NCBI GenBank assembly: GCA_030583725.1
Contig: CP129472.1
Coordinates: forward strand, 270,958-334,957
From: a bacterium
GTDB taxonomy: Bacteria; Patescibacteriota; Microgenomatia; UBA8517
DNA: 64,000 nucleotides
Direction of reading: 5' to 3'
Part shown: positions 14,877 through 57,767 of the stretch, in pieces
Numbering within the stretch: the stretch's first letter is position 1
Layout: each line of letters opens with the position of its first letter
Notes under the pieces: generated by a model
Database searches by the model: none
What the model was told of the DNA's origin: nothing
Seen by the model: the letters and a program-made list of their open reading frames with translations, nothing else
Program-made: the position numbers and the translations under genes

Positions 14877-14882
14877 ATACTA

Positions 14883-31817: not shown

Positions 31818-32958
31818 AATAATTTATTGTTGTTGGAAAAATGTTTTCCACTCTCTTAGCATACTCAAACCAATAGTCATTTACAAAAAACCAGTAACCA
31901 ATAAGGACTGTGGTCATTATAATTAAGCCAATGATTTTGTTCATAGATAAGTATCCTATTGTTGAGATAATCACATAGAACGGTACTAACGCAAGTAGCC
32001 TACTTGCTCTATATATATCTGGAACAAATCCAAATAGTAAGGGTAATAAAAAGAAAGAGCAAAGGATTAAAACTTCAAAAGGCTTCTTTCTCTTTAATAT
32101 ATCCCATACCCCTGCTAAAAATAGTGGTAGTGTAAAAATAAGAAACATTCCTGATTTCCCAGTTGAATGATAGGAACTTATATCTCCCTTTAAGAACATA
32201 AAACTTAAGTCAAACACGCTTAAGTATCGTAATGCAAATTCATAAAAAGAAGGGGCAGTAGAACTAAAACTTCCCACCACCGCACTAGGGTAGTAAAAGT
32301 TAGCAACATATAAAAGAATGAAAAATGGTAATACTCCTACCAAGAATAATACACATTGTTTAAAACTTTTTCTTAAGTATATTAAGGTTATTAGTGATAG
32401 AACAGGAACAATTATCCTCATACCTAGATAGGAAAATATACCAGCACCTAAAAATGCCCCAGCTAAAATAAAATGTATAGGTTTTTTTTGCTTTACAAGC
32501 ATCAATAGCCACAAAAATATAAATGGTAAAACCGCAATGTTTTCTAAAGCCAAATGTGACTGGATCATAATAATTGGAGTAGTTATTAGTATTATGAAAC
32601 CAACTAAGAAAAACTTTAAGTTGAAAACTTCTTTGGACAAAAAGTAAAAAATTATTATTGAGGCAACGACAAACAACACACTAGTCATTCTAAGTGCTGC
32701 AAAAGAAACACCAAACACTTTAAAAATTGCAGCTGTTGTGTAAACAGTTACAGGCTGTTTCCAATCAGATGTTTTTGCAAATATAAATAGCGGTAGAAAA
32801 TTATTATTCTCATCTGTCAAACTTTTAGACATCAGTGCTGCGTTATGGGCTATACCTACCTCATCTCCATTTATTCCAGGGGGGACTTCAGTAATTCTAA
32901 ATGAAAAAAGTAAAAAAGCTAAAAAACAAAAAAGAGTAACTATAAAAATATTTTTCAT
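31792..32958 (-). CDS. GT-C glycosyltransferase, ArnT/PMT-like, tandem paralog 4 of 5, short form lacking the C-terminal soluble domain
   Basis: 388 aa. VPPGINGDEVGIAHNAALM loop, with a GDE motif in place of WDE. The membrane core is retained but the sequence ends shortly after the last helices. Confidence 0.65.
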   Translation of the reverse strand: MKNIFIVTLFCFLAFLLFSFRITEVPPGINGDEVGIAHNAALMSKSLTDENNNFLPLFIFAKTSDWKQPVTVYTTAAIFKVFGVSFAALRMTSVLFVVASIIIFYFLSKEVFNLKFFLVGFIILITTPIIMIQSHLALENIAVLPFIFLWLLMLVKQKKPIHFILAGAFLGAGIFSYLGMRIIVPVLSLITLIYLRKSFKQCVLFLVGVLPFFILLYVANFYYPSAVVGSFSSTAPSFYEFALRYLSVFDLSFMFLKGDISSYHSTGKSGMFLIFTLPLFLAGVWDILKRKKPFEVLILCSFFLLPLLFGFVPDIYRASRLLALVPFYVIISTIGYLSMNKIIGLIIMTTVLIGYWFFVNDYWFEYAKRVENIFPTTINYYDQEFVKK

Positions 32959-34439
32959 TTGTCAGAAATTGTCACATTATCATATATTTTTGGGAGCTTG
33001 CCATATTGAGAAATCACATCTTTTGGATCGATTTTTGCATATACAGGGTATGCATACTCTATGTTGTCAATTTTTGTCGAGAGAGTAATATCAATATTCT
33101 TGTCAGTCTTTATTGTAGCCAGAGAAACCATCTTTGCTTCAGCAGACCAAAAACTGCCAAACTTATTTGGTGCAAAATAATAAATAGTTATTAAAACGTA
33201 AATTAATTGAACAACCATTAATAAAACTATTGTTACAATCCATTTTTTTGAAAGGTTAGATAAAGCGAAAGCTGAAACTAAGATAAAAGCTGGTAACATT
33301 AAGTTATTCCTGAGTCCATGTGTTTGCCCCATTAACATTGTAGCCAAGGGAACAATCAAAATCCAAGAAACAAGTAGAAGTAAACTTTTCTTATTCATAC
33401 TTGCCAGCTTGTAAAAACCAAATAAAATTAAAGGTAACTCAACTAAATACATCATACCCCATTCACCAGGATTGACTCGTGGGTTTCTGTCACCTCTTAA
33501 AAATAAAAATTCTGGGGATAAATTTTCTAGATAATTTTCAAAAAGAATTCTTGTATATGCAAGTGGCTTGTTATAAACAATAGGCTTAATCATCACTGGT
33601 AAAGTTGATAAGGTTCTTTGCTCATTGATCTTTTGTATGACAGACTCCTGTCTGTTTCTATCAGAAAAGATGTTCAAATCCAAAAAACGTACTTCTGAGG
33701 TACCTTTGAAGGTTTCATTCAATGAAAATACACTAAAAACAACCAACACTAATAAAGATAACTTAAACTTGTTATTTTTAAAAGTCTCCCTAAAACCAGA
33801 AAAACCTATTAATACTAAAAACAATAAAGGCAGTGTTAACTTAAAAGTAGGATATGTAAATATTGTTAACCCCCAAAGAAGGGCCATCCAAATGTATTTT
33901 TTATGCAAAAACATTAATATCCCAAAGGTTGCCAAAAACAAGGCAAAATGAGCTTCAAACCCAGCGCGTGATAAATAAATATCCCATAATGAGATTGAAG
34001 TTAAAAATGAAGCCCATAAACCAACCTTTTTACTAAACAACTTCTTACCTAAAAAGTACATTAGAATTATTATTCCAATTCCAGAAATTAAAGATAAGCT
34101 TCTTACCCCCCATTCAGATGGTCCAAACAACGCCACGAACGGTATACTACCGTAAACATAACCTGCAGGCCTACCTGCTCCCATTTTAAAGGTTAATGGA
34201 AGGCTTTCTCCAGTCTGGTCCATACCTGTTTTTAGAACGCTGTAAGCATCGTAAACCATAGTTAGTTCATCACCATACATAGGTAAGCTGTCAAGCTTAA
34301 AAACACGAAGTAGAGTCCCAAGAATAATGATTAAGAGTAGTATATAATTTAGATATGGAAGTTGTTTTAATGGGTTCAATTTTTGTGTTTTCTGCTGCCA
34401 CCCTAGTTTCATATCTTTTAATTGTACTAAATATTCCAT
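32955..34439 (-). CDS. GT-C glycosyltransferase, ArnT/PMT-like, tandem paralog 5 of 5
   Basis: 494 aa. LPMYGDELTMVYDAYSVLKTGMDQTGESLPLTFKMGAG is collinear with paralogs 1 to 3. The ORF-track start overlaps the divergent plus-strand gene, so the true start is probably an alternative codon further downstream. Confidence 0.7.
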   Translation of the reverse strand: MEYLVQLKDMKLGWQQKTQKLNPLKQLPYLNYILLLIIILGTLLRVFKLDSLPMYGDELTMVYDAYSVLKTGMDQTGESLPLTFKMGAGRPAGYVYGSIPFVALFGPSEWGVRSLSLISGIGIIILMYFLGKKLFSKKVGLWASFLTSISLWDIYLSRAGFEAHFALFLATFGILMFLHKKYIWMALLWGLTIFTYPTFKLTLPLLFLVLIGFSGFRETFKNNKFKLSLLVLVVFSVFSLNETFKGTSEVRFLDLNIFSDRNRQESVIQKINEQRTLSTLPVMIKPIVYNKPLAYTRILFENYLENLSPEFLFLRGDRNPRVNPGEWGMMYLVELPLILFGFYKLASMNKKSLLLLVSWILIVPLATMLMGQTHGLRNNLMLPAFILVSAFALSNLSKKWIVTIVLLMVVQLIYVLITIYYFAPNKFGSFWSAEAKMVSLATIKTDKNIDITLSTKIDNIEYAYPVYAKIDPKDVISQYGKLPKIYDNVTISDK

Positions 34440-36190
34440 ATTTAATCATTCCTATTTTACTCTTAACATTAATCTACTTCTACAAGCCACTAATTAAAGC
34501 TGTAAAAAACGTCAAAATCACCTTTAATTTAAAGTTTTTGATAGTTTTTGTAGTTTTTAGCATAGGCATTCTTGGCCAACTTGCAATTATTTCTCCAAGT
34601 GGCAACTATCAAGATGGAAACTTAGTCTTTTGGAGTGCACATGGACATGATGGACCATGGCACATTGCCCTAGTGGAGGAGATGAAAAAAGGTTACCCAT
34701 TTGAAAACCCAATTTTTGCAGGTGAAAAATTAACAAATTACCATTTCTTTTCAGATATTCTGCCAACTATGGTAAGCCTCTATACACCAATATCAAACAC
34801 GGATTCGTATTTTAGAGTTTTCCCTTTTTTCTACTCTTTATTTCTAGGTGCTTCTGTTTTCTACCTAACAAAAAAGTTAACAAAAAGTTTTAATGCAAGT
34901 ATTTGGGCAGTTATCTTTACATACTTTGCAGGTAGTTTTGGTTATTTAATAGGAAAGGGAGAAAGCGTATTTTGGGCAACACAAATACAAAGCTCAAGTG
35001 GTAACCCACCACAAATTATTTCTAATTTTTTGTTTCTTGCAGGTATCTATTATGTATTAGTTTTTCTTGACCAAAAAGAGAAAATGCAAAGATTAAAATA
35101 TTTTTTAATTTCCTTAGTAATTTTAGGAACCATATCATCTTTTAAAATCTATGCAGGTTTTGTATTACTACTAACCATTGCTTTGGTTGGCACCTGGAAC
35201 CTGATATTTAAAAAAGATTTTAGATTATTTTTACTTTCACTAACAAGTGGTATTGTTGCACTACTTTTATATCTTCCAAATTCTGCAAACTCTACTTCAT
35301 TTTTAATATATGAACCTTGGTGGTATATAAGAACATTGATCGTAGAACCATCAAGGTTAAATCTCCTAGACTGGGAATTAAGACGTCAAACATACATAGT
35401 TGAAAACAATTGGAAAAGAGTTATTTGGCTTGAGGGAATGGGTTTTTTAATATTTTTCTTTGGAAACCTAGGAATGAGAGCCATTGGTCTATGGGAATTC
35501 GTGAAATCAAACTCTATTTTTAAAATTGCAATTATCATCTCGATTACTATGCCTCTTTTATTTTTACAAAAAGGTGTAGCCAGTAATACTGCACAATTTT
35601 TACAATATTTTATATTACTTTTTGGGATAATGGCTGGAATTGCTGTATCAAAAATACTTAACACTAAACTAAAAACAATTACATTAGGAACTGTAATTAT
35701 TATTTTAATGATCCCAACACAACTTACATTATTAAAAGATTTCTACGTCGCGGATGGCCATATCAGACCTCCATTTACTAAAGTTAACTCGTCAGAACTG
35801 GAAGCTCTTGAATTTATTAAAAACAACACAGAAATAAATTCTGTAATAATTACACCACCATACAATCAGTACCTTGATCAGAAAAAGAATATACCTGAAA
35901 TATGGGACTGGTTTGACACTTCATATGTTTCTGCCTTTTCCGCAAGAAGAACTTATTTTGATGACTATGAACAAGTTGACATCATGGGCTATGACTACAG
36001 ACCAAGACTTAAAACAAAAGAGGTTGTCTTTAGTGAAAAAGACGAAACGAAAGTTAAAGAAGCCATACTTTCAACAAATGCAAACCTACTTTACTTTCCA
36101 AAAGATTTAAAACCCCAAGTTAAACTAGATAGAATTGGATTTACCCTATTTTATGAAAACACTACTGTAGAAGTTTGGAAAATAAATTAG
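34355..36190 (+). CDS. Polytopic membrane protein with a C-terminal soluble domain, member of a two-gene family defined by a GHDGxWHIAL...NP.F.GE.L.NYH motif (GT-C-like, unnamed)
   Basis: 611-aa ORF. Clear paralog of 48423..50090, with shared blocks GESVFWATQ/GESMFWSQQ, KIYAGFVLL/KAYAAILVL and GNLGMRAIGLWEF/GNMGLRVIGFWYF. Alignment with the paralog places the real start near a TTG at about 34538, which would leave a divergent intergenic region of about 100 bp. Confidence 0.6.
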   Translation: MEVVLMGSIFVFSAATLVSYLLIVLNIPYLIIPILLLTLIYFYKPLIKAVKNVKITFNLKFLIVFVVFSIGILGQLAIISPSGNYQDGNLVFWSAHGHDGPWHIALVEEMKKGYPFENPIFAGEKLTNYHFFSDILPTMVSLYTPISNTDSYFRVFPFFYSLFLGASVFYLTKKLTKSFNASIWAVIFTYFAGSFGYLIGKGESVFWATQIQSSSGNPPQIISNFLFLAGIYYVLVFLDQKEKMQRLKYFLISLVILGTISSFKIYAGFVLLLTIALVGTWNLIFKKDFRLFLLSLTSGIVALLLYLPNSANSTSFLIYEPWWYIRTLIVEPSRLNLLDWELRRQTYIVENNWKRVIWLEGMGFLIFFFGNLGMRAIGLWEFVKSNSIFKIAIIISITMPLLFLQKGVASNTAQFLQYFILLFGIMAGIAVSKILNTKLKTITLGTVIIILMIPTQLTLLKDFYVADGHIRPPFTKVNSSELEALEFIKNNTEINSVIITPPYNQYLDQKKNIPEIWDWFDTSYVSAFSARRTYFDDYEQVDIMGYDYRPRLKTKEVVFSEKDETKVKEAILSTNANLLYFPKDLKPQVKLDRIGFTLFYENTTVEVWKIN

Positions 36191-36764
36191 AATAAACTAG
36201 CTTCACTGTCTCTAGTCTACTGTCTGGTTTGTGAAATGTAACAATTGGAGCACCACCTATATGTAACTCTTCATCGTATATATACTCCAATATTTCATCT
36301 GTTTTCTCTGTTAAAAATATCTCAATTATTTCTTCATCCCCTGCACTTGGCGAAGAAAGAGTAAAGTAATATTTCTTACTTTCAGAGTCTGGTATTTTAT
36401 CAAAAACAATCTTTACAAAATCTCCATCCCCAATATTGAAACCGTTTAAAGTTACTGATCTTACTAATCTTGCGTTTTCCTGATATAGATCAAAAAAAAT
36501 ATCTTTCTTGTTGTGTAGGTTTGGATTTTTAATAGTTGTCCCAACAGCGGTTAAGTTTTTGTTTTTTGACACAAAGTATTGGGTGAAAATTCTTTCTCCA
36601 TAGACTGAAACTCTTCCCATGTCACCATACCCTGGCTGGTCATCTGCAGGTATCATCTGGATTAACATTGCCATCAAACCTGGAAATAGAAATAATAAAA
36701 ACAAGATTGTAGCAATTGTAAAAACTGAAAACTTACTTTGTAAAAACATACTTTTTTTATTCAT
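36162..36764 (-). CDS. Membrane-anchored, probably exported, small protein of unknown function
   Basis: 200 aa. N-terminal signal-anchor helix (FSVFTIATILFLLFLFPGLMAMLI), then a hydrophilic acidic domain. Co-oriented and overlapping with the downstream GT-C gene. Confidence 0.45.
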   Translation of the reverse strand: MNKKSMFLQSKFSVFTIATILFLLFLFPGLMAMLIQMIPADDQPGYGDMGRVSVYGERIFTQYFVSKNKNLTAVGTTIKNPNLHNKKDIFFDLYQENARLVRSVTLNGFNIGDGDFVKIVFDKIPDSESKKYYFTLSSPSAGDEEIIEIFLTEKTDEILEYIYDEELHIGGAPIVTFHKPDSRLETVKLVYSNLFSKLLQ

Positions 36765-38016
36765 TTAATTTTAATTTACTCTTCTTAAATAAATTATATG
36801 ACAAAATAACTGACAAACCAGCTAGGGCTGAGTGGATCAGACTTTGTAAACCATATGGATCATATATTTTTTGTATAAATGTAAATGGAGTTGGTAACAA
36901 ATCAAACCATGTTGAGTAAATCCTAAATAGTGACAAAGTCATTGACCTGTCTGAATAAAACAGAGGAATAGAGATTGCCAGTACTGACCAAATAAATATA
37001 GGTATAGCTAGTTCTTTTCTTTTAACTGCAAGGATTACCAAAAAAGGAGCAATCCATAAAAGCCATGAAATATGGAAGTGGGAAAATGAAAACAGTATTA
37101 AAAGTATCGCAACAAAGTAGTGAAATAACTTTATTTTTGTGTCATTCAACCAACAATAGAAAAACAGTGCAGTGATTAAAAGAAGTCCCACAATTATAGA
37201 CTCGCCAAACCCTATTACAAAATTTGGGGTAAATATTCTAGTCGATAACCCTGACAAAAGTGCAGAATTGACAAAAGCCTTTGACCAAAAAGGAATTATA
37301 GAAACTACAAATATAGATAGTGGGACAATAACAGTTAGTATTCTTGTCTTAGTGCTCTTTGCCTTTAAAAACAAAAATGGCACAAATAACAAAGCATACA
37401 ACTTAAAGGAAATGGCAAGACCCAGAAACACGCTCGCCTTAATTAGTTTGTCAGTTTTTAGGTACAAGAGAGCAACTACTGTTAATAAAACAGCATACAT
37501 GTCGATATTTGAAAAGGCATAGATGAGTATTATTGTAAATGGATTAAACAACCACAACTCAAATGCTTTGTCACCATTTTCTGATCTTTTGAAAAACTTA
37601 AGTAACAGATAAGCAATGGAAATATCTAATATTAGGAGTGGTAATTTAAGCGTAATTAAGTATTTAAAAATGTTTGGGTTGTTAACAACAGTATTTGCAC
37701 CCGCGTCCATTATCCAGCTGCCAAAGTCACTACCTAAAACAGGCGAGATAATTGCCTGATAGGCTCCAATTGTAAAATATGTTAGAGGAAAATAAACAAA
37801 CTCTTCTTTTAATGGAAGACTTGACTTATTATCACTTAAATAATTATATATGTCAGTCACCCCAGACTTTAAAAATGAGGTTTGAAATGCAATTGTTTTT
37901 ACATCTGGATGAAACAAAAGTGCAGAAACTAGCAGACGCAATATAACGGCAGTTAAAAGCAATTTAATTTTCATTTTTTTTAATTCGGAAATAATAATAA
38001 ATATAATATACTGCAA
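36757..38016 (-). CDS. Polytopic membrane protein, GT-C-like (DUF2029/GT87-like), tandem paralog 1 of 2
   Basis: 419 aa with about 11 helices. ELWLFNPFTIILIY and GLAISFKLYALLFVPFLF are collinear with LWMINPINLYATY and GLGAGFKIFPLLFIVPLAF in the next gene. Confidence 0.5.
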   Translation of the reverse strand: MQYIIFIIISELKKMKIKLLLTAVILRLLVSALLFHPDVKTIAFQTSFLKSGVTDIYNYLSDNKSSLPLKEEFVYFPLTYFTIGAYQAIISPVLGSDFGSWIMDAGANTVVNNPNIFKYLITLKLPLLILDISIAYLLLKFFKRSENGDKAFELWLFNPFTIILIYAFSNIDMYAVLLTVVALLYLKTDKLIKASVFLGLAISFKLYALLFVPFLFLKAKSTKTRILTVIVPLSIFVVSIIPFWSKAFVNSALLSGLSTRIFTPNFVIGFGESIIVGLLLITALFFYCWLNDTKIKLFHYFVAILLILFSFSHFHISWLLWIAPFLVILAVKRKELAIPIFIWSVLAISIPLFYSDRSMTLSLFRIYSTWFDLLPTPFTFIQKIYDPYGLQSLIHSALAGLSVILSYNLFKKSKLKLNE

Positions 38017-39208
38017 TACCTACAAAAACAGAATGGAACAAACTACGCATCAAATTAACGTCTAGATTTAGTCCTAGTTGTGACCATATACCCGCTTGAC
38101 CATAAAGTGATGGGTTAATTGGGGCAAATAACCATATAGAAAGACCTGGGTCGAAAAAGGTAACCAACATTATAAAACTTATAAATATTCCTAGTAACAA
38201 CGGCCAATGTTTAAACTTTGAGACAACTAAGTCAATTATCAAAAATGGAGTTATCCATAGTAGCCACTGAGGGTGAGAATGGGTAAAGATGAAAAATATT
38301 AATAAAACAGAAAAGAATCTTTGCCACAAAAACTCGATGCGAGTTTTGTGGTAAAAATAAAAAATATAAAGGAAAATGACAGCTACTAAGAACAGAATAA
38401 CAGACTGGCCACCCGACACAGGAATTTGAGCGTAAAAACTTTTGGTAGTTTGACTAGCTAAAAGTGCAGTTTTCCTAAATCCTTCAGACATTATAAACGG
38501 ATAAGCAAATAAAGCATATGTTATTCCAGACGTAAACAAGATTTTTATTCTTTCCCACCAACTTTGCTTAAAAAAAGCTAGAGGAACTATAAAAAGTAAT
38601 GGAAATATTTTAAATCCTGCACCTAGACCCAGTAAGATTGCGCTTAAGGTTAAGTTGTCTTTCTTGATTGCATAATACAATGCAGCGACGCTTAAAAAGG
38701 TTGGGATAATATCAAATTGTCCAACCATATAGGTTGCATACAGATTTATGGGGTTTATCATCCATAGTCCAAAAACAATGATCTTTTCCTTTCTTTCTTT
38801 AAAGAATGTCATCAAGATGAAAGCTACTGCTATGTCAAAAATAAAGTAGGGAAGTTTTAACAAAAACAACAATAAATTAAGTTGAACATTACCCAGCGTG
38901 GACTCAAAATCAAGTATAAAAGCTGTATGGACGCCACTATCAACTATCCAAGTAGTTAATAGTGAGGCACCTCCTAAGAAAAAGTAGGGTAATGGTGGAT
39001 AGTTAAATAGGTGTCTAGGGTAAATTGAAAGATAAGGATGATCTTCTGGCAAATCCCAGAGATAATCGTAAAAATTAGTAACATTACCACCACCAATTAC
39101 TTTTCCTGCGAAATCAAATACTGGGGTATCTGAATGGTAAGTAGTGGAAGCTAAAAATATACGCAACAAAATCCCAACTGTTAAAATTATTAACACAATT
39201 CTATTCAT
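37964..39208 (-). CDS. Polytopic membrane protein, GT-C-like (DUF2029/GT87-like), tandem paralog 2 of 2
   Basis: 414 aa. See previous feature. Confidence 0.5.
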   Translation of the reverse strand: MNRIVLIILTVGILLRIFLASTTYHSDTPVFDFAGKVIGGGNVTNFYDYLWDLPEDHPYLSIYPRHLFNYPPLPYFFLGGASLLTTWIVDSGVHTAFILDFESTLGNVQLNLLLFLLKLPYFIFDIAVAFILMTFFKERKEKIIVFGLWMINPINLYATYMVGQFDIIPTFLSVAALYYAIKKDNLTLSAILLGLGAGFKIFPLLFIVPLAFFKQSWWERIKILFTSGITYALFAYPFIMSEGFRKTALLASQTTKSFYAQIPVSGGQSVILFLVAVIFLYIFYFYHKTRIEFLWQRFFSVLLIFFIFTHSHPQWLLWITPFLIIDLVVSKFKHWPLLLGIFISFIMLVTFFDPGLSIWLFAPINPSLYGQAGIWSQLGLNLDVNLMRSLFHSVFVGIAVYYIYYYFRIKKNEN

Positions 39209-40866
39209 TTTTTATATATTAAGTAGATTGATACTCCCAAGGCCATTAATGAAACTATATCAAAAACAAGTCTTGTTGGCGACTCTCTATATTTTATTTC
39301 TACAATATGCTCCCCACTGGGGACCAAAAATGAAATTTGACCATATGGTTTACCTGACAGAATATTAACTCTTTGGCCATCTATATCTGCAATCCAACCT
39401 GGATAGTTATACTTTGAGTAATTTAAAACAAAATCAATCTGGCTGCTTGTGGTAATGCTTGCATCCAGTGCATTTAGCTCTTGTATAGTAAGCTCTACTT
39501 CCTCACTTTCGGTGTAAGCCCTAGGATAATTCTTATTAGGTCTTATCTCATTTTCTTTAGGAAGCCGCAAATATTCCTCTCCTGTTTTTTTGTATTCTTC
39601 ACTTGCAGTAGGATATGGAATAAATCTATTTATATAATAGTCATCTGTCCTACCTAAATATTCACTGGTTTTAAAATAATTAAAGTTAAAAACAATTGCT
39701 CCAGCTATTATTACAATTGGTAAAAACCTTAAACTCTTAAATTTTGATAAAACTATTATAAAAATTGGACTAACCAATGTTATCATAGCCAAAAACCTCC
39801 AAGGAAATTGAAAGTAAGGTAATAGGGGAATGCTCCTCCATAAAAAGGCAGATCTATGATTCATCATAAATACACTAACCAGCACAACAAAGAATGACCA
39901 GCCAATAAATACTTTCTCACTTTTAGAAAATTTTTTGTTCTTTATAAAGAATAAGATTGTTCCAAGTGCAATTGTCACCAACCCAACAAGACCAACATAA
40001 AAAGACATTGTGTCATAGGGTCCCGGTACTGAAGCACCATAACCCCAATAAGGAGTAATAAATTGTTTTAAAGTCGGGTAGTGATCATAGAAGTTAAAAA
40101 CAGTATCATACTTCATTAACCTACTTTCAAAAATAGCTGGAACCCAAAAATAACTTGAAATTAGCAGACCAATAATTAAACCCTTAAAGCTACTCAAAAT
40201 TGCGTATCTTTTGTCCTTAACTAACCAATAAATTCTCATGGCAATAAACACTAATAGGAATGGTGTAAACATATACGCCATAATATTGTGCGACAGAATA
40301 AGTCCAGCAGTTCCCAAGCCCGCAATCCCCAACCACTTTAGTGATCTTTTTTCACTTGTCAGTTTTATATAAGACATTAAAATTAATGGAAAGAAAATAA
40401 AGGCAACAATCTCCCCTATCGTCCCCCGCACAAAAAGCTCAAGGGCCCGATATGGAGCATAGACATATAAAACTGCACCTGCTAATGAGAAATCCTCTTT
40501 CATATAAATCCTAAAAAGCTTATATGCAAAAACCATTGATAATGGGATTGATAACCCAAACACCAACTTAATACTATTTACTAGCGAAAAACCAACTAAA
40601 TGGAAAATCTCTGCTACATAAAACGGTAGTGGGTAGACAAAAGTAAAAAGTGGGTAACCAAAACCAAAAGAAAGATCAGGGACAAATCTGGGTGGAAACT
40701 GCAAACTCCTAACAACTCTATCCATTTCAAAAAGCCAACCAATATGAAGGTCATCTGAAACTCCAAAATACCCATCCACAAAAAGATATCTGACGGCAGG
40801 CAAAGAAAGTAAAATTATCACCAAATATGTATATCTTGAAATAAACATTTGGAATGACTGTATCAT
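39205..40866 (-). CDS. Polytopic membrane protein resembling the PTPS-related (6-pyruvoyl-tetrahydropterin-synthase-related, PF10131-like) putative GT-C family, tandem paralog 1 of 3
   Basis: 553 aa. The N-terminal block SDDLHIGWLFEMDRVV..FPPRFVPDLSFGFGYPLFTFVYPLPFYVAEIF matches, in my recollection, the family signature (D.L....R......FP.RWVPD...GYGYP.FNFYPPLPYY). C-terminal extracytoplasmic domain. Confidence 0.55.
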   Translation of the reverse strand: MIQSFQMFISRYTYLVIILLSLPAVRYLFVDGYFGVSDDLHIGWLFEMDRVVRSLQFPPRFVPDLSFGFGYPLFTFVYPLPFYVAEIFHLVGFSLVNSIKLVFGLSIPLSMVFAYKLFRIYMKEDFSLAGAVLYVYAPYRALELFVRGTIGEIVAFIFFPLILMSYIKLTSEKRSLKWLGIAGLGTAGLILSHNIMAYMFTPFLLVFIAMRIYWLVKDKRYAILSSFKGLIIGLLISSYFWVPAIFESRLMKYDTVFNFYDHYPTLKQFITPYWGYGASVPGPYDTMSFYVGLVGLVTIALGTILFFIKNKKFSKSEKVFIGWSFFVVLVSVFMMNHRSAFLWRSIPLLPYFQFPWRFLAMITLVSPIFIIVLSKFKSLRFLPIVIIAGAIVFNFNYFKTSEYLGRTDDYYINRFIPYPTASEEYKKTGEEYLRLPKENEIRPNKNYPRAYTESEEVELTIQELNALDASITTSSQIDFVLNYSKYNYPGWIADIDGQRVNILSGKPYGQISFLVPSGEHIVEIKYRESPTRLVFDIVSLMALGVSIYLIYKK

Positions 40867-42485
40867 TGTTTTCTTTTTTTCCGTAATACTATTAATCCTA
40901 CAAAACTTATAATTGATATTAAGTTCGATACTGCCCTAACTGGTGTGTTGTTAAATCTACCTTCTACTTCATAGTTTCCCTTATCTAGACTGATTGAAAT
41001 CCTACCCAATAAATTATCATCTGAAATTGGATGTTTTACGCCATTTACTTTTACACTCCAATTAGGAAAATAAAAAATAGGCATATGTATTTCTGTTTTA
41101 TCTAAAACCTCAATATTAAAATTAAAACTATTTGAGCGATTTATATAATTATCAATCTCCGCCTCGCCAGTTATGATAAGTGGTAAGTCAGGTGCTTTCT
41201 CCCTCGGCTCTAGTGCAGTTTCTGGTAGATAGTCTAAAAGCGCACCCCTTGTTTGTTGTTCCCAAAGTTCACCAGACACTTTTTGTGATTCACTAATTGG
41301 ATAAAATTCTTTTGGACGAAAGTAGCCCCAATTTAATAAAATCGTAATAATTATAATAAAAACACTTAAATACTTTTTCCATTTATCATTAACCAAGAAC
41401 ACAACAAAACCACCCAATATAGACGCTGTTAATATTGATAAAGATAGAAATCTCCAAGGGAACTGAAAATACTTTAGTATGCTAAAAGACTCCCAAATAA
41501 AGGTTGATTTATTATGTGTCATAAAGACTGACATTAAAAACAACACAAAAATACTAACGACCAATATTATATTGTGTTTTTTAACTCTGTTTAAAAATAT
41601 AAAAATTAAAGATAGAACAGCAAGTATCCAATATGGCCATCCTACTTGAAAATTCATTCCACCCTCAGGACCTGGTATAGAAGTACCATAACCCCAAGAT
41701 CTATCCAAAAACAACTGCCTTAGGCCTACAAAGTTGGCCCTGTAATCAAGCTCAAAACGAGTCAGGCTTTCGGTCTGGACAAGATCTTTTTCAATAAAGG
41801 CAGGAATAGTAAAAAAAGCAGATAAACCAAAGGCTATAAAAAAGGATATCGTAATTACTTTCAGGTTTTTTAAATTACTTGTTAAAAGCAAGTATACTGC
41901 CAATAAACCTACAATTGGGACAAAAATAACAGTCATAATATTGTGAGTTATTAAAAATAGGAAAAAAGTTAAAGAAAAAAGAAAATATTTCTTTCTAATT
42001 AAAAAATATAAAACAAAAGGAATGATTGTAAGTGCCATTCCCTCACCCAACGCACCTCTAACATATATATCAAGTGCCTTATATGGTGCAAACATATAAA
42101 GAACAGCCGAAGTCAAACCTGCGTACTTGCCCCACAACTCCTTGACCAAAAGATACATACCGAAACTCCCAGCAGTAAGGCTTATGAAAAAAAGTATTTT
42201 GGCTGAAATTAAGTATCCCACCAGATAACTAATAAGTGCCCCAAGATAATAGGTGGATACACCATAGAAATTAAAAAGTGGATAACCATTTCCCCAACCC
42301 ATATCAGGTACCCAACGGCAGGGAATTTGAAAATCTGAAAAACATTTTCGCATTTCAACAAGTCTTATGATTTGAAGGTCATCTTGATGCGAGAAATAAC
42401 CACTTTTAAAAAGTGGCCAAGAGATTGAAAGTCCTAGAATAAAAATTAAAATAATTTGCCAATTTCTTTTTAAATAGTTAATCAT
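40863..42485 (-). CDS. PTPS-related-like polytopic membrane protein, tandem paralog 2 of 3
   Basis: 540 aa. SHQDDLQIIRLVEMRKCFSDFQIPCRWVPDMGWGNGYPLFNFYGVSTYYLGAL. Confidence 0.55.
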   Translation of the reverse strand: MINYLKRNWQIILIFILGLSISWPLFKSGYFSHQDDLQIIRLVEMRKCFSDFQIPCRWVPDMGWGNGYPLFNFYGVSTYYLGALISYLVGYLISAKILFFISLTAGSFGMYLLVKELWGKYAGLTSAVLYMFAPYKALDIYVRGALGEGMALTIIPFVLYFLIRKKYFLFSLTFFLFLITHNIMTVIFVPIVGLLAVYLLLTSNLKNLKVITISFFIAFGLSAFFTIPAFIEKDLVQTESLTRFELDYRANFVGLRQLFLDRSWGYGTSIPGPEGGMNFQVGWPYWILAVLSLIFIFLNRVKKHNIILVVSIFVLFLMSVFMTHNKSTFIWESFSILKYFQFPWRFLSLSILTASILGGFVVFLVNDKWKKYLSVFIIIITILLNWGYFRPKEFYPISESQKVSGELWEQQTRGALLDYLPETALEPREKAPDLPLIITGEAEIDNYINRSNSFNFNIEVLDKTEIHMPIFYFPNWSVKVNGVKHPISDDNLLGRISISLDKGNYEVEGRFNNTPVRAVSNLISIISFVGLIVLRKKRKQ

Positions 42486-44148
42486 GTTTTTTTCTCACCA
42501 AAAGGAAGGCTATAACAATCATACCTAATATTGTTAAGTAATTGCCAATTTTTCTAATTGGAGTATCCAGTAACCTTACTTCTACATCATAATCACCAAT
42601 AGGTAAGTCAATTGAAATTAGTCCATAACAAAAATCATGCCCCCTACAATCATTGTTGTAATGCTCAACCTTTTCTCCATTAACTTTTACGGTCATTCCA
42701 GGAAAGTCAAAAAGAGGAAACCTAATTGATGCGTCTTCAGTAATATTAATTGTTCCATATTGGAAATCACTTCCCTTTTTGTATCCTATTACTTCAGCCT
42801 TGCCATCCATAATCTCAGGTAATTTTGGAGCTTCATTTATCGGAGGAAGAATGGAATAAATAGGTAAATAATCAAAAATAGATATTGTCATTTGTTTTTG
42901 CCAACTAACACCTGAAAATTTGTCGGTATCTGTTATGTATAACCAATCTTTAGGAACGAAAAATGAAAGATTGGTAACTATTGCCACAGTGACAACCAAA
43001 ACACCAATTACATATTTTGATTTTTTAAAGTAAAGAATAAAAATTCCTGAAAGTAAACAGAGTAAAAATATACTTAAGGCTAAAAATCTCCAAGGGAATT
43101 GCATATACCAAAGAAAAGGAAGCTCGGACCATATAAAACTTGATTTCATATGCATCATAAAGATACTTGCCAGAGACAAGAACCCCAACCCAATAACTAA
43201 CAATGACTTTTTTTTGTCTTTCTTAAAATTAACTAGTGCCAAAACTACTGCTACTATACCAATTAACCATTGTATGATCCCAAGGGACAAGTTTAATTTC
43301 TCATCGGGAAATCCCGACGAACCATAACCCCATTCCGTCGAAAAGAAAAGTTTATGTAAACTAACAAAATGAGCTCTATAGTCAAAGTACCCTGATAACA
43401 TACTTTCTATGTGCACAAACTTTCTTTCAAAGGCTACTGGTAATAGATAAAAAGCTGATAGCAAAAAACCGATCAACCCACTCCAAACTACATTTAACAA
43501 ATTGTTCCATTTTTCATCCCATAACCAATAAACTGCCCACAGAATGGCTGCGGGCGCAAAGATCATGGTCATTAATGTATGTGTTAGTGCAAGTAATGCA
43601 ATTGAAACTGCAAGTATTATTAAATATTTTTGTTTGCCGGTTTTAATCAGTTTGTAAATAAACAAAAAGATCAACGGGAAAAATATTTGAGCCCAAAACT
43701 CACTTAATGCCCCCCTGACATAGACCTCAACAGCTTTGTAGGGTATATAGGTATAAACAACAGCAGACACAAAACCCGCCCACTTGCTTTTAAATAAGGA
43801 GCTGACTAAAACAAACATTGTAAGTGCTGAGAGTATGTAGCCTGCAACAAACAATATTTTTACACTGTCTATATATTGAAAACCTACTCTATGAAGTAGA
43901 GCTCCTACATAGTATGGCAGTGGTGGATAGTAATTAAACTGAGGATAACCATAGCCATACCCACCATCTGGAACCCAACGACATGGTATTTGGTAGTCTT
44001 CAAGACATTTATCTAGCTGTTGAATCCTAAAAGCTTGCAAGTCATCCTGCATTGAAAAAAATCCCGGTCTTAACAGATTCCAAAACGTTGGAATTGTAAA
44101 AATAATGACTAACACAATCCAAAGTATATTATTTTTGATGAAGGTCAT
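42478..44148 (-). CDS. PTPS-related-like polytopic membrane protein, tandem paralog 3 of 3
   Basis: 556 aa. SMQDDLQAFRIQQLDKCLEDYQIPCRWVPDGGYGYGYPQFNYYPPLPYYVGAL. Confidence 0.55.
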   Translation of the reverse strand: MTFIKNNILWIVLVIIFTIPTFWNLLRPGFFSMQDDLQAFRIQQLDKCLEDYQIPCRWVPDGGYGYGYPQFNYYPPLPYYVGALLHRVGFQYIDSVKILFVAGYILSALTMFVLVSSLFKSKWAGFVSAVVYTYIPYKAVEVYVRGALSEFWAQIFFPLIFLFIYKLIKTGKQKYLIILAVSIALLALTHTLMTMIFAPAAILWAVYWLWDEKWNNLLNVVWSGLIGFLLSAFYLLPVAFERKFVHIESMLSGYFDYRAHFVSLHKLFFSTEWGYGSSGFPDEKLNLSLGIIQWLIGIVAVVLALVNFKKDKKKSLLVIGLGFLSLASIFMMHMKSSFIWSELPFLWYMQFPWRFLALSIFLLCLLSGIFILYFKKSKYVIGVLVVTVAIVTNLSFFVPKDWLYITDTDKFSGVSWQKQMTISIFDYLPIYSILPPINEAPKLPEIMDGKAEVIGYKKGSDFQYGTINITEDASIRFPLFDFPGMTVKVNGEKVEHYNNDCRGHDFCYGLISIDLPIGDYDVEVRLLDTPIRKIGNYLTILGMIVIAFLLVRKKHD

Positions 44149-44165
44149 ATTATTTAGATAAAACT

Positions 44166-45068
44166 TTAAAGATTAAACTTGGCAAATATTGCTTCGTCGG
44201 AAACGATAGACTCCTTAATCTCTTTTTTCCTAGCTCTTAGGGCAATAGGCAACCTTAATAAGGCCATAAAAATTATTATGAAGTATCCGGGGTGTCTAAG
44301 TGCCCTTGTTATAATTGCAATAACGTGGTTTTGTATCATTTTATTACTTTGTATATTTTTCCAGAGCATTAATAACTGATTACGTTCTTTTACTCTGGCT
44401 ACATACTTTTTTGGAAACTTTGAAATTGTTGACTCATGCTTATGAACCACTTTTCCGTTAGGTTCCCAAACGTTTAGATATCCTCTTTTCCATGCCCTGT
44501 AACAAAGATCGATATCTTCCCAATAGAATGGGGATAACAGTTTTTCGTCCATTCCACCCAATTCCTTCCAAATACTTTTTCTAAAAACACCGCTTCCACC
44601 GCTAACATAGAAGCTTATATGAGACTCCTTTGTTTCCTTTGTCATCCCCAGCTGAATATATCCTTCAGAAAAGTAACCCCTGGCGCCCCCATATCCTTCT
44701 TCGTGTGTAGAAACAGCAAAAACCTTTAGATTTTCAAAATGCGGTAACACTGGCTCTAAAAAATTTGGTTCTGGAATAACGTCTGTGTTTATTAAAAGTA
44801 TCAAATCTCCCTTACTCGCTCGGACACCAGTATTTACAGCAGCCGAGAAACCCCTGTTCTTAGTATGCTTTATTAGCTTAACCTTATCCCCATATTCTTT
44901 ATTTAAGAAAACAACACTGTCGTCCCAACTACCGTCGTCAACCACTATTACCTCTAAAATGTGATTATTAGGATTATCTACTGCTTTAAAAAGTGCTGGA
45001 AAGTTTTTCTCCATTATCGTCTTACCGTTAATATTTGGCATTACCACTGATACTGTTAATTTTTTCAT
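44166..45068 (-). CDS. Glycosyltransferase family 2
   Basis: 300 aa. VSVVMPNINGKTI ... VIVVDDGSWDDS ... INTDVIP. Rhamnosyltransferase-like GT-A layout. Confidence 0.85.
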   Translation of the reverse strand: MKKLTVSVVMPNINGKTIMEKNFPALFKAVDNPNNHILEVIVVDDGSWDDSVVFLNKEYGDKVKLIKHTKNRGFSAAVNTGVRASKGDLILLINTDVIPEPNFLEPVLPHFENLKVFAVSTHEEGYGGARGYFSEGYIQLGMTKETKESHISFYVSGGSGVFRKSIWKELGGMDEKLLSPFYWEDIDLCYRAWKRGYLNVWEPNGKVVHKHESTISKFPKKYVARVKERNQLLMLWKNIQSNKMIQNHVIAIITRALRHPGYFIIIFMALLRLPIALRARKKEIKESIVSDEAIFAKFNL

Positions 45069-48422: not shown

Positions 48423-50090
48423 TTAGCGTGAATAAATAACAACAATTTCGTTTTCATAGATTTTAGTCAAATTTAAGTCTGAAGGACCAATCTTCATCAG
48501 TTCCCCACTTAAGGGTGTCATTTCTTTGACCAAATATAAATATTTAATATTGTTGTCTTCAAGAAAACTTCTGGCAAATTCCAAATCTAAACTTGTAAAA
48601 AAATTAAATACATTATCTCTTCTCTCTTTCCACTCATAACCCATGATATTTAAGTTAACTTCGTCTTCTATGTAAACATTTTTATGAGCGTATGCAGACA
48701 CATAGGCGGTTGAGTCATATGTATAAAGCGGACGAGGTGGATTCTTGAGGGCCTCTATTGCTTTATATTTGTCATAGGGATATGTCAAAACTACAGCGTT
48801 GGACTGCTGTTTCAGAAATGATAATGCCTCTAGTTCTGACTTTGTAACCATAGATTGAGGTTTGGGTGGCAGATAATGTTGTAACGTAGCCCAGGAACCA
48901 AAAATAGAAAATGTAATAAATAGTGCTTTTATGACCAATCCAGATCTACTAATCACAATACCTGCAAAAAGAGAAAAGATAAATAAATAGTAGTAGAAAA
49001 ACTGAATAGTGTTCCATGGAGTACCAACCTGAACAAAGAACATAGGTATTAACAATCCCACTCCAGAAATAGTAACCAGTATTATTAAAGTACTATCAAT
49101 TTTTAATTTCTTTTGCAAGAAATACCAAAATCCGATAACCCTAAGGCCCATATTTCCAACAATGAAGATTAAAAAGGCAGTTGCGTAAGCCAGCGTGGCC
49201 TTCAACCAGATATTACCCATTTTGTATGTAGTCATGGCTGAATAAAACCTTTCCCAACCCACCCTATCAGAATAAATCATCATTGTTTCCAAGAACCAAA
49301 AGGGGTACCACGTAAATACAGATACACTATCATTCTTAACCATAAAAAATAATATTATGTTAATAAGTAGTGAGCCACAAAAAACCTTCATAATATGGAA
49401 TTTATGATTTATTACTAATGAATATGCTCCAGAAACAAACAAACCACCAAGAACTAAGATTGCAGCATATGCCTTTATTTGGATAAGTAGACCAAAAAAG
49501 ACCATAGAGAGTAAAATATGGTAATTTTTGCGTGTTTGTTCATACTTCTGAAGAAAGATTAAACCAAGTAGAATAAAAATCAAAGATAAAGCAAGGGGTG
49601 GATTAACTAGAGTAGATAGAGATTGTTGGGACCAAAACATTGATTCTCCAGTTATTTCTCCATTGCGTAAAAAGGTCAGCAAGAAACCTAAACCACTTCC
49701 AAAATATACAAAGGCAGTCGACCAAAAAGCCTCACTCTTAGATTTTCTCCAAAGAAAGATAAATTTATAGGTCAATAAACCAATTAAAAAAGCCATAATT
49801 GGGGGAATAATTTGAAAATAAAGAGTGTTAACCGGTACTTTTATTATTTGATTAACTAAGGCAAGTAATAAATCAAAACCAATATGGTAATTCTTAAGTG
49901 GCTCTCCGGAAAATACTGGGTTATTAAGACTACCGCGCGCGAGACTTTCTGAGAGAGCTATGTGCCATACACCATCATGTCCATTTGGACCCCAAAAACC
50001 GATACCATAGCCATACAGCCATCCACTTCTAATCATGGTCAAAGACCATAGACTGGTTCCGATAATAATAAGTATTATTTTTGACCCCAT
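48423..50090 (-). CDS. Polytopic membrane protein, second member of the GHDGxWHIAL family (paralog of 34355..36190)
   Basis: 555 aa. GFWGPNGHDGVWHIALSESLARGSLNNPVFSGEPLKNYH plus collinear downstream blocks. C-terminal soluble domain of about 150 aa. Confidence 0.6.
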   Translation of the reverse strand: MGSKIILIIIGTSLWSLTMIRSGWLYGYGIGFWGPNGHDGVWHIALSESLARGSLNNPVFSGEPLKNYHIGFDLLLALVNQIIKVPVNTLYFQIIPPIMAFLIGLLTYKFIFLWRKSKSEAFWSTAFVYFGSGLGFLLTFLRNGEITGESMFWSQQSLSTLVNPPLALSLIFILLGLIFLQKYEQTRKNYHILLSMVFFGLLIQIKAYAAILVLGGLFVSGAYSLVINHKFHIMKVFCGSLLINIILFFMVKNDSVSVFTWYPFWFLETMMIYSDRVGWERFYSAMTTYKMGNIWLKATLAYATAFLIFIVGNMGLRVIGFWYFLQKKLKIDSTLIILVTISGVGLLIPMFFVQVGTPWNTIQFFYYYLFIFSLFAGIVISRSGLVIKALFITFSIFGSWATLQHYLPPKPQSMVTKSELEALSFLKQQSNAVVLTYPYDKYKAIEALKNPPRPLYTYDSTAYVSAYAHKNVYIEDEVNLNIMGYEWKERRDNVFNFFTSLDLEFARSFLEDNNIKYLYLVKEMTPLSGELMKIGPSDLNLTKIYENEIVVIYSR

Positions 50091-50941
50091 GCTTCAATTT
50101 CACCTGTATATGCTCGAAATGAGTAATCTTGAATACCTAACTTTTTTGAAAGCGTGACCATCATCTCAAAAAAATATGGAGAATAATATTTCAACCTGCT
50201 GAAAACATACTCCAAGCTTAAAACGTGATAAGTCTTTCTGGTCTCAATATTTTTGAATCCCGCCATTTCTAAAGCTAATCTTAACGATCCTTGTGTAAAA
50301 TACATGATATGTTCACCAGGTTTATAGTGATACCACATGGATTTTAATAATTTGTGCCACAACCCTCCAATATCAGGAGTTACTAAAAATATGAGTCCAT
50401 CTTTTTTTAAATATTTATACGCAATTTTTAACTCCTTAATGGGGTTGCTCACATGTTCAATCACATCTTGGTAGGTAATAATATCAAAATTGTTCCTTGG
50501 GTAACCAGAGTCTTCTAGCACAGTGTTTTTTATGTTAGTAACTCCCCTTTTTTTAGCCTGACTCACTGCAAACTCTGATACTTCCACACCATACGAGTCT
50601 TTCCATCCCAGATGTGTTGCGACTTCAAGACAATCACCCAGCGCAGCGCCTACATCTAATAACCTTCCTTTAAATTTCAGCTTTTTTTCTATTTTCTTCA
50701 ATCTATCAATAAAAGTTCTTTTATTTATTCTCATCCCTTCAAAATAATTTGTATAACCACCTTTTGGATTATCGTTTTGAAAGTAGGATTTATCATATTG
50801 AAGCAAAACATCCACTTGGTGATTTGAGTCCCAAACAAACTCACATTCTTTACATCTCGACAACTTATAACCATGCATTGCCCAATATTTGGTATTTCTT
50901 TTACTTTTGCAGATCGGACATTTATTAGTTAGTTTTGCCAT
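50075..50941 (-). CDS. Class I SAM-dependent methyltransferase with N-terminal C4 zinc ribbon
   Basis: 288 aa. CPICKS...CKECEF ribbon, then LLDVGAALGDCL (motif I) ... DIITYQDVIEHVSNP ... KDGLIFLVTP. Confidence 0.8.
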   Translation of the reverse strand: MAKLTNKCPICKSKRNTKYWAMHGYKLSRCKECEFVWDSNHQVDVLLQYDKSYFQNDNPKGGYTNYFEGMRINKRTFIDRLKKIEKKLKFKGRLLDVGAALGDCLEVATHLGWKDSYGVEVSEFAVSQAKKRGVTNIKNTVLEDSGYPRNNFDIITYQDVIEHVSNPIKELKIAYKYLKKDGLIFLVTPDIGGLWHKLLKSMWYHYKPGEHIMYFTQGSLRLALEMAGFKNIETRKTYHVLSLEYVFSRLKYYSPYFFEMMVTLSKKLGIQDYSFRAYTGEIEAWGQK

Positions 50942-57017: not shown

Positions 57018-57767
57018 TTATACTTTATATCTACCGTAAATTGCATTAATTCTAACCTTAACAAGATCCCTAAACCCTTCCCAAGAATCTTTAATTGGAT
57101 TTACTTTTGTCCCCTCTTTGTGATGCCAGACAACTGGAACTTCTGCAACTTTTAGTTTTAATTTTCTTGCAACATATAGAATTTCTAAATCAAACCCAGC
57201 TGAAACAGATGCCCCCGACTGGGCTTGTTTTTGATTGAAAACTTTAAGTCTTTTAAAAATCTTGTTAGATGCTGACATTGTAAAGGCCTTAAAACCACAT
57301 TGAGTATCTTTATAAGGAAGCTGCAATATTATATTTCTAAGAATTGAAAACCCATAGGCCATGGTTTTCCTAATTAGAGGTGCTCCTTCCCTACCTGCTC
57401 TTGAACCAATAACAATGTCGTAACCCTGTTTAAACTTTGGTAATACTTTTTCTAACTGATCTATGGGTGTGGCCTGATCCATATCATCAAATATTATTAT
57501 TTCCCCCTTTGCCTGAAGCATTCCTGCAATCACAGTTCCACCCTTCCCCCTGTGAGGCTCTCTTAAAACTCTCACATTTTTACGATTAACAGCAAATTTT
57601 TCAGCCAATTCACCCGTTTTATCTGTGGATCCATCATCAACGACTAATATCTCCCAAGTATATTTCTGGCCACCTAAATAGTCACATATACCCGAAAGAG
57701 CACCCGTTCTTATATTATTCTCTTCGTTATAAGACGGTATTACTACACTTAAAAATGGTCTTCTCAT
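57018..57767 (-). CDS. GT2 polyprenyl-phosphate hexosyltransferase (DPM1/ArnC-like)
   Basis: 249 aa. LSVVIPSYNEENNI ... LVVDDGSTDKT ... IFDDMDQATP. Confidence 0.85.
   Translation of the reverse strand: MRRPFLSVVIPSYNEENNIRTGALSGICDYLGGQKYTWEILVVDDGSTDKTGELAEKFAVNRKNVRVLREPHRGKGGTVIAGMLQAKGEIIIFDDMDQATPIDQLEKVLPKFKQGYDIVIGSRAGREGAPLIRKTMAYGFSILRNIILQLPYKDTQCGFKAFTMSASNKIFKRLKVFNQKQAQSGASVSAGFDLEILYVARKLKLKVAEVPVVWHHKEGTKVNPIKDSWEGFRDLVKVRINAIYGRYKV

Follow-up and report, generated by a model that had tools for sequence, protein, structure and literature searches.

A conserved, probably non-redundant trio of PF10131-related GT-C glycosyltransferases in a Microgenomates glycan locus

Contig CP129472.1 of the bacterial assembly GCA_030583725.1 (Genome Taxonomy Database lineage Bacteria; Patescibacteriota; Microgenomatia; UBA8517) carries, within the 64,000 nucleotides from position 270,958 to 334,957 of its forward strand (the window, in whose own numbering all coordinates below are given), three adjacent genes for membrane proteins that we call P3, P2 and P1 in the order of their transcription. 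Our analysis of these proteins and their relatives indicates that they are GT-C glycosyltransferases of an uncharacterised subfamily within the already catalogued family PF10131 and its clan CL0111, and that, as judged by sequence comparison, they make up an old, conserved and non-redundant set. It appears rather probable to us that the three are non-redundant extracytoplasmic transferases of the GT-C(A) type, which would use polyprenyl-phosphate sugars in the assembly of one envelope glycan.

The three minus-strand genes have exactly the extents, lengths and common orientation given for them in an earlier reading of this DNA made from its letters alone (the original prediction; Table 1). Neighboring coding sequences share 8 nt at the P3/P2 junction and 4 nt at each of the next two junctions, P2/P1 and that between P1 and the gene that follows it. 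All-against-all BLASTP of the 55 window open reading frames (ORFs) of at least 120 amino acids gives full-length matches between P2 and P3 (38.5% identity, E = 3.6e-120), P1 and P3 (29.5%, E = 4e-71) and P1 and P2 (29.3%, E = 1.4e-61), and no fourth window ORF matches any of them at E = 1e-3. All three contain the N-terminal motif DDL[HQ]xx[WR][LI]x(10)Q[FI]PxR[FW]VPDxx[FWY]GxGYPxF[TN][FY], and translation of the window in six frames yields the core of it, Q[FI]PxR[FW]VPD, three times and no more. The full motif is a corrected form of the signature from which the family had first been recognized; that signature was real in substance, but its literal pattern matches none of the three proteins, because the spacer is 10 residues long and not 6, P1 begins the motif with S-DDL and P3 with M-Q-DDL, and P2 lacks the terminal LP[FY]Y.

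Membership of PF10131, which had been suggested for all three proteins, is supported directly by the Pfam scan for P3 (40.5 bits, E = 1.6e-10, cutoff 26.4 bits); P2 reaches 17.5 bits, under that gathering cutoff, and P1 has no PF10131 match at E ≤ 0.01. The PF10131 model, 621 positions long, is matched over 1–307 (P3) and 1–327 (P2) only. In the same Pfam scan P1 scores marginally over the cutoff of PMT_2 (PF13231; 28.6 against 26.1 bits), a model with no match to P2 or P3, and P3 scores under the cutoff of YfhO (PF09586; 23.2 against 28.5 bits), a model with no match to P1 or P2; no NCBIfam model matches any of the three. The orthologs of each paralog straddle these thresholds as well, matching PF10131, PF13231, PF09586 or none of them; most P2 orthologs have precomputed PF10131 matches, and many P1 orthologs pass likewise. 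The full-length homology of P1 and P2 to P3, together with the passing scores of many orthologs of both, leads us to regard the two as relatives at the edge of the PF10131 model. On these sequence grounds the family appears to sit between PF10131, PMT_2 and YfhO, and it is functionally uncharacterised. A profile of 135 family sequences aligns with the window's eleven PMT_2-type proteins (hhalign probability 98.3%, E = 1.4e-14, 379 columns). Profile search detects 19,917 clusters (at 50% identity) at E ≤ 1e-3 and 6,917 at E ≤ 1e-30. A search of the PDB with the 135-sequence profile found nothing relevant, its sole match being a prefoldin chain at E = 2.

The database names of these proteins point in different directions, the NCBI product name of P3 being '6-pyruvoyl-tetrahydropterin synthase-related protein' and that of P1 'glycosyltransferase family 39 protein' (GT39). 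Neither the Pfam nor the NCBIfam scan found a 6-pyruvoyl-tetrahydropterin synthase (PTPS) catalytic domain in P1, P2 or P3, and the first name is therefore a misnomer. PF10131 appears in the searchable literature only as a family of 'function unknown' in the GT-C clan (PMC7801869), in keeping with the earlier statement that no activity had been demonstrated for it, and literature searches on PF10131, on 'PTPS-related' proteins and on GT-C arrays in Patescibacteria and the Candidate Phyla Radiation (CPR) brought up no account of this family or array.

Structure prediction gives a more uniform picture. AlphaFold2 models of P3 (pLDDT 94.5, pTM 0.93) and P1 (pLDDT 92.4, pTM 0.92), built with the 135-sequence alignment, each contain 12 transmembrane (TM) helices, in agreement with the hydropathy profile, and in P3 a beta-sandwich is placed between the last two of them. 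When the two models were compared with the PDB by Foldseek, the matches at E ≤ 1e-3 were GT-C enzymes only (STT3, PglB, AglB, AftA and AftD), followed by weaker matches to ArnT, EmbA/B/C, DPY19, AftB and Pmt4; the matches to GT-C enzymes have a probability of 1.00, TM-scores of 0.36–0.49 and identities of 10–15%. ALG3, which we take to be of the GT-C(B) type, is a much weaker match (E = 0.13). By Foldseek the beta-sandwich resembles, weakly and locally, the accessory beta-sandwich domains that GH30, GH5 and GH44 enzymes carry. The presumption that these proteins are glycosyltransferases with a GT-C core, for which structural modeling had been proposed as a check, thus stands, because P3 has a PF10131 match and both models have such a core. 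The predicted cytoplasmic loops are basic (KSK, KLIKTGKQK, NFKKDKKK, FKKSK and the C-terminal RKKHD), which by the positive-inside rule places the N- and C-termini inside the cell and the loop after TM1, with its DD motif, outside. This topology is independently supported by naturally occurring fusions (below), in which a cytoplasmic GT2 domain precedes the N-terminus of P3 or a P2-like protein is joined head-to-tail to a P1-like one.

The residues that the family conserves lie where such a topology would put an active site. Across the three orthologous groups 49 positions are at least 90% conserved, mainly on outer loops, and 11 of these are in the first outer loop (EL1), including D35, D36, R57 and D61 of P3. 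D35 is invariant in the 135 sequences and D36 at least 90% conserved (the equivalents are D35-D36 in P2 and D38-D39 in P1); hhalign aligns this DD motif on the single nearly invariant Asp (the 'DE' motif) of the window PMT_2 set, and we propose that it is the catalytic acid/base. Further conserved residues are K97, R145 (in the 134–147 loop), E150 (on TM4, at its outer end), H190, E241, G274, Y275, G276, S336 and W340, and Q350, F351, P352, W353 and R354, which are invariant and belong to a QFPWRF block present in all three paralogs. A WGYG motif, also invariant, is superficially like the WWDYG motif of oligosaccharyltransferases but has another structural position. All invariant polar residues are on outer loops or outer helix ends, an arrangement that in the models is as expected of a candidate GT-C active site, and P1, P2 and P3 each retain every invariant residue and an intact reading frame.

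We also asked how widely the trio is kept. A scan of species-representative genomes found 331 stretches that encode relatives, and among the best 80 loci, which were analysed, 71 had enough downstream sequence for tandem members to be counted: at least two are present in 67 of these 71 loci and at least three in 52, and the order P3-P2-P1 is found in 49 of the 71 Microgenomates species loci. Each paralog has hundreds of orthologs of its own, with top identities of 72–76%, in Microgenomates-group Patescibacteria (Woesebacteria, Daviesbacteria, Shapirobacteria and Dojkabacteria), the P3 orthologs being 60–76% identical. In two related loci, L001 and L004, the positional orthologs correspond one-to-one (64–66% identity for P3, 48–49% for P2 and 49–51% for P1, against 29–38% between paralogs), and the gene order agrees with that of the window: PMT_2, Wzx, several GT2, GT4, (methyltransferase), GT2, (GT2), P3, P2, P1, GT87, a 547-aa unknown protein, GT87 and a 205-aa gene. 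The protein of about 547 aa whose gene separates the GT87-like genes in relatives is not encoded between them in the window. The window counterpart of the last gene, a 200-aa gene at 36162–36764 (-), is 42–49% identical in L001/L004 and ends the syntenic block. At 32 positions each group is at least 90% conserved within itself and differs from the others; these positions concentrate in EL1 (9), in the beta-domain (9) and in EL4, the TM7–TM8 loop (5), as would be expected of enzymes that differ in the substrates they recognise. The separate orthologs of each paralog, the kept order and the group-specific positions together exclude a recent redundant duplication, and the description of these genes as a 'triplicated array', in the sense of a local expansion, gives way to one of three ancient orthologous lineages conserved across Microgenomates. 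Many array-bearing contigs (those of L009, L011–L013, L017, L022 and others, 45–72% identity) are titled 'uncultured Gammaproteobacteria bacterium'; these titles look like bulk-submission mislabels of Microgenomates-type arrays. A tblastn search of phages with P3 gave just three weak partial matches, covering 27–30% of the query.

Among the 120 closest clusters of P3, 30 carry a GT2 domain joined to its N-terminus, a fusion never seen with P1 or P2. This GT2 is rhamnosyltransferase-like, for which reason we rejected the idea that GT2::P3 joins a donor synthase to its transferase. Genes of this type are fused to P3 or stand directly upstream of it (L004 10001–12427 and L001 9195–10028 are examples), and none has an ortholog in the window, where the best tblastn match is 24.7% identical. 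The 300-aa GT2 immediately upstream of the window's P3 was considered as the counterpart of the fusion partner and rejected, being the ortholog of a different gene (L001 8288–9193, 64.6% identity) and a conserved neighbor in its own right; of 23 loci in close relatives, 9 have the fusion-type GT2 immediately upstream of P3 and 5 have the window-type GT2 there. Among other fusions, P0361 joins a P2-like to a P1-like protein head-to-tail, and P0416 and P0419 join a family member to a PMT_2-type protein; these three together with P0362, P0371, P0384 and P0504 are predicted polypeptides with two to six copies of the family domain, or with a member plus a PMT_2 GT-C. One predicted multi-copy polypeptide is 3,329 aa long and has six matched stretches.

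The window is almost wholly a glycan locus (GC about 32%), as had been thought: it holds genes for GT-C, GT2 and GT4/GT1-type glycosyltransferases, a flippase, an exporter, methyltransferases and amino-sugar enzymes. Sixteen of its genes are of the GT-C type (11 PMT_2-like, the trio and 2 GT87-like), all on a contig of 841,695 bp, and they are accompanied by about ten GT2 genes, three of the GT4/GT1 type, several methyltransferase genes and the amino-sugar genes. The trio and its flanking block are co-directional, with genes that overlap or abut. Directly downstream of P1 the two GT87-like proteins are 29% identical to one another, co-occur with the trio across loci and have each their own ortholog, 52–56% identical, in L001/L004; hhalign of this pair against the trio family (23.9%) gives no usable relationship. 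The Wzx-type flippase is 73–74% identical in L001/L004 and is found within 8 kb in 48 of the 80 loci. Four small GT2s of the window (57018–57767, 61856–62554, 15773–16471 and 21895–22566; 223–249 aa) are similar to polyprenyl-phosphate-sugar synthases, with matches to the NCBIfam models for PpgS, AglJ, ArnC, PgfS and Dol-P-hexose transferase that all score under the equivalog cutoffs. In 39 of the 80 loci, orthologs of two of them are found 2–6 kb upstream of the array and share its strand. To judge from these similarities, the 249-aa member is a candidate supplier of the lipid-linked donor. The GT2 that adjoins the trio is not DPM1-like, and the DPM1/PpgS/ArnC-like GT2s are 13–18 kb off.

Table 1. 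The trio, features of P3 and selected neighboring genes in the window; residue numbers are those of P3.
Feature	Position	Strand	P3 residues	Remarks
P3	42478-44148	-		556 aa; transcribed first of the trio
P2	40863-42485	-		540 aa; middle of the trio
P1	39205-40866	-		553 aa; third and most divergent of the trio
P3 TM1			7-26	AlphaFold2
P3 first outer loop (EL1)			27-91	short helices; AlphaFold2
DD motif codons	44041-44046	-	D35-D36	directly after TM1, first extracytoplasmic loop
P3 TM2-TM11			up to 396	ten helices; AlphaFold2
WGYG motif	about 43321-43332		273-276	TM7-TM8 outer loop; equivalents in P1 and P2
QFPWRF block codons	43084-43101	-	350-355	outer end of TM10
P3 extracytoplasmic beta-sandwich	42562-42960	-	397-529	between TM11 and TM12; AlphaFold2
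P3 C-terminal anchor helix TM12			530-555	AlphaFold2
GT2	44166-45068	-		300 aa; PF00535, 84.7 bits; 17 nt upstream of P3; cytoplasmic GT-A
Two tandem GT87-like GT-C	36757-39208	-		414 and 419 aa; PF09594, 31.1 and 22.4 bits
Wzx-type flippase	52618-54081	-		Polysacc_synt_3, 179.5 bits
Small GT2	57018-57767	-		249 aa; polyprenyl-phosphate-sugar-synthase-like
Second small GT2	61856-62554			polyprenyl-phosphate-sugar-synthase-like
Five tandem PMT_2-type GT-C paralogs	27261-34439	-		
Six scattered PMT_2-type GT-C	1209-2750, 50925-52658, 54095-55618, 55635-57011, 57764-59281, 60288-61874			

A mechanism can be proposed in which each of the three proteins spans the membrane with 12 helices, has both termini in the cytoplasm and turns outward an active site made up of the first outer loop (DD, R57 and D61), the invariant K97, R145, E150, H190 and E241, and the QFPWR block. 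One of the small GT2 synthases of the locus would make a polyprenyl-phosphate-linked sugar in the cytoplasm, which would then be flipped, and on the outer side of the membrane P1, P2 and P3 would each pass such a lipid-linked sugar on to an envelope glycan, a lipoglycan or a wall polymer under construction. The lipid-linked core of this acceptor would come from the neighboring GT2 and GT4 enzymes, with Wzx as its exporter. The three paralogs, and then the two GT87-like enzymes, would act at successive and distinct steps, possibly in a physical complex. Such a model would be analogous to the serial GT-C steps of mycobacterial lipomannan/lipoarabinomannan (LM/LAM) and arabinogalactan synthesis, and to the 'multi-component transmembrane glycosylation systems' of Firmicutes (GT-A, flippase and GT-C). 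Paralogy, fold, topology, conserved motifs, synteny and fusions are what the data show; donor type, acceptor, order of steps and complex formation are inferred. A bolder form of the model, in which the trio and the GT87-like pair are a physically coupled, multi-subunit and extracytoplasmic GT-C assembly line for a lipoglycan or wall polysaccharide specific to Microgenomates, is suggested by the natural P2::P1, GT2::P3 and member::PMT_2 fusions; we hold it to be possible but doubtful.

Several observations weigh against the use of polyprenyl-phosphate sugars by three serial transferases. No activity has been demonstrated for PF10131-type proteins in the searchable literature, and the nearest solved structures have TM-scores of only about 0.49 at 10–15% identity. 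With regard to the class of donor, the best Foldseek matches are oligosaccharyltransferases, which use pyrophosphate-linked oligosaccharide donors; the GT2::P3 fusion gives a mono-phosphate donor no direct support, because its GT2 is rhamnosyltransferase-like; the nearest polyprenyl-phosphate-sugar-synthase-like GT2 in the window is about 13 kb from the trio; and a GtrA-type flippase was not identified in the window. Promoter and terminator scans were at chance level and speak neither for nor against a single operon.

The same data can be read in other ways. The trio could be PMT/GT39-type protein O-glycosyltransferases, which would load the Ser/Thr residues of secreted, S-layer or pilus proteins, and not a glycan, with single sugars taken from polyprenyl-phosphate donors; P1 is marginally over the PMT_2 threshold and bears the GT39 name, hhalign relates the family to the window PMT_2 paralogs at 98.3% probability, Pmt4 and DPY19 are among the fold matches of P3, and streptococcal GT-C enzymes are reported to glycosylate Ser/Thr-rich regions (PMC12041528). 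PMT_2 is, however, a broad family that includes enzymes which modify lipid A and wall polymers (PMC8035078), the Pfam scan finds no MIR or other PMT-specific domain in the trio, whose sole outer domain is the C-terminal beta-sandwich, and Pmt4 ranks under STT3, Aft and ArnT in both fold searches. A glycan acceptor is also the better fit to a locus with Wzx and many cytoplasmic glycosyltransferases and to a beta-sandwich like the accessory domains of glycoside hydrolases, and we judge protein O-glycosylation to be unlikely. Oligosaccharyltransferase-like enzymes, which would move a Wzx-flipped oligosaccharide en bloc from polyprenyl pyrophosphate to a protein or polymer, would account for STT3, PglB and AglB being the best Foldseek matches of both models, for the Wzx flippase and cytoplasmic GT2 and GT4 genes in the same block, for a precomputed STT3 (PF02516) match in one P2 ortholog and for the invariant WGYG. 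The window proteins themselves have no Pfam match to PF02516 and no WWD[YWF]G, WGYG being part of the TM7–TM8 loop instead of a domain C-terminal to the last TM helix; the TM-scores to STT3 (0.45–0.49) are no better than those to AftD (0.45–0.46), and three conserved serial paralogs with 13 further GT-Cs in the window are not typical of oligosaccharyltransferases. We give this explanation little credence.

Two simpler explanations fare worse. That three genes of similar size and common ancestry are adjacent, in a window with several other paralog arrays, could reflect a recent lineage-specific tandem duplication whose copies are redundant or decaying and have no particular function. The paralogs are, however, 29–38% identical while positional orthologs in many species are 48–76% identical, the P3-P2-P1 order recurs in 49 of 71 loci, and invariant residues and reading frames are intact, which makes this very improbable. 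A pterin-related activity, as the database name '6-pyruvoyl-tetrahydropterin synthase-related' would have it, is hardly credible: the family name and the NCBI product name are all that speaks for it, no PTPS catalytic domain is found by Pfam or NCBIfam, the GT-C core, beta-sandwich and TM anchor account for the whole protein, and window scans find no pterin genes in the neighborhood.

P3 passes the PF10131 threshold and is, like the PF10131 proteins themselves, a multi-pass membrane protein that belongs to the GT-C clan (PMC7801869), but the C-terminal half of the trio (the beta-sandwich and single TM anchor) falls outside the match to the model. YfhO is the nearest functionally studied relative, and the evidence for its role is genetic. 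It has weak sequence similarity to P3, and some orthologs have PF09586 matches; as in the AlphaFold2 model of P3, its GT-C core precedes an extracellular domain that the last two TM helices flank, in YfhO a loop of 389 residues (PMC5836110). YfhO is longer, however, at about 860 aa, and its outer domain of 389 residues compares with about 130 in the trio. Its gene is operonic with GT-A enzymes, as the trio is, and the CsbB/GtcA/YfhO system glycosylates lipoteichoic and wall teichoic acids with N-acetylglucosamine (GlcNAc) in Bacillus, Staphylococcus and Listeria; whereas YfhO is paired with a 2-TM C55-P-GlcNAc synthase and a GtrA flippase, the trio has another GT2 and a Wzx-type flippase. Systems that combine a GT-A enzyme, a flippase and a GT-C enzyme have been described as 'multi-component transmembrane glycosylation systems' (PMC8035078).

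PMT_2/GT39-like enzymes and ArnT (GT83) share with the trio profile homology and the Asp of the first outer loop, and ArnT and Pmt4 are among its fold matches; identity is only 10–17%, the trio is without MIR domains, and the QIPxRWVPD, WGYG and QFPWRF motifs, the C-terminal beta-sandwich and the anchor helix are features of its own. Mycobacterial GT-Cs (AftA, AftB, AftD, EmbA/B/C and the GT87 enzymes PimE and MptC) perform serial outer-face steps on one glycan with polyprenyl-phosphate sugars. Several of them (AftA, AftD, AftB and Emb) rank among the best fold matches of the trio, and GT87-like genes directly follow it; there is no detectable sequence similarity, however, and the trio comes from CPR Microgenomates. 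EmbA-EmbB acts as a heterodimer, and it appears among the P3 fold matches as a single entry (7bvc), a precedent for hetero-oligomeric GT-C enzymes. GT136, founded in 2024 on ORF12 of Citrobacter youngae O1, is a further comparison, very similar in its general layout: ORF12 transfers ribofuranose from undecaprenyl phosphate (UndP-Ribf), and its 11 TM helices lead into a beta-rich periplasmic domain. Essential in ORF12 are an Asp just after TM1 and an Arg near position 349, and a Tyr at 350 is important (PMC11127046). By this published description the Asp and Arg compare with D35/D36 and R354 of P3; ORF12 differs in being assigned to the EpsG family by CDD and in having no reported C-terminal anchor helix.

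Nothing about the trio is mechanistically unexpected, and it is a well-defined and tractable object for assigning a function to PF10131-type proteins. This is a very large family, and the locus supplies three non-redundant members, two of them (P3 and P1) with confident models, and in each a candidate catalytic dyad and a small number of group-specific positions are defined. The new points are the conserved non-redundant trio itself, its natural fusions and the density of GT-C genes in a small CPR genome. Sixteen GT-C-type genes per 64 kb in a genome of about 1 Mb imply that an elaborate envelope glycan is put together outside the cell, and this would be relevant to how CPR bacteria build their surfaces and attach to hosts. 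The fusions lead to the testable prediction that the enzymes work as complexes. A coupled assembly line, were it to exist, would be a CPR equivalent of the LAM and arabinogalactan pathways of mycobacteria, and would provide the first defined activities for PF10131-type proteins, with three distinct linkage specificities.

Other genes of the window deserve mention. A Wzm/Wzt-type ABC exporter pair (ABC2_membrane; ABC_tran plus Wzt_C) at 13635–15707 (-) occurs in the same window as the Wzx flippase, which suggests two separate routes of glycan export. Two paralogous multi-pass membrane proteins of 555 and 611 aa (48423–50090 (-) and 34355–36190 (+)), 29% identical, have no Pfam match and no PDB sequence match; they are syntenic with the trio, are present in 32–33 of the 80 related loci, and are unrelated to the trio family by hhalign (1.9%). 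A six-sequence alignment has 74 invariant columns, including a 'GPHGHDGVWH' block. A Fic/DOC-domain protein of 345 aa with a TTG start (20475–21512 (-)) is encoded among the glycosyltransferase genes, and several sizeable ORFs without a Pfam match are found at 9609–11639 (-), 17049–18917 (+), 23519–24658 (-), 62604–63734 (+), 4180–5166 (-) and 36162–36764 (-). Finally, the divergent genes at 32955–34439 (-) and 34355–36190 (+) overlap at their 5' ends by 85 nt (34355–34439), and at least one of the two start codons has probably been set too far upstream.

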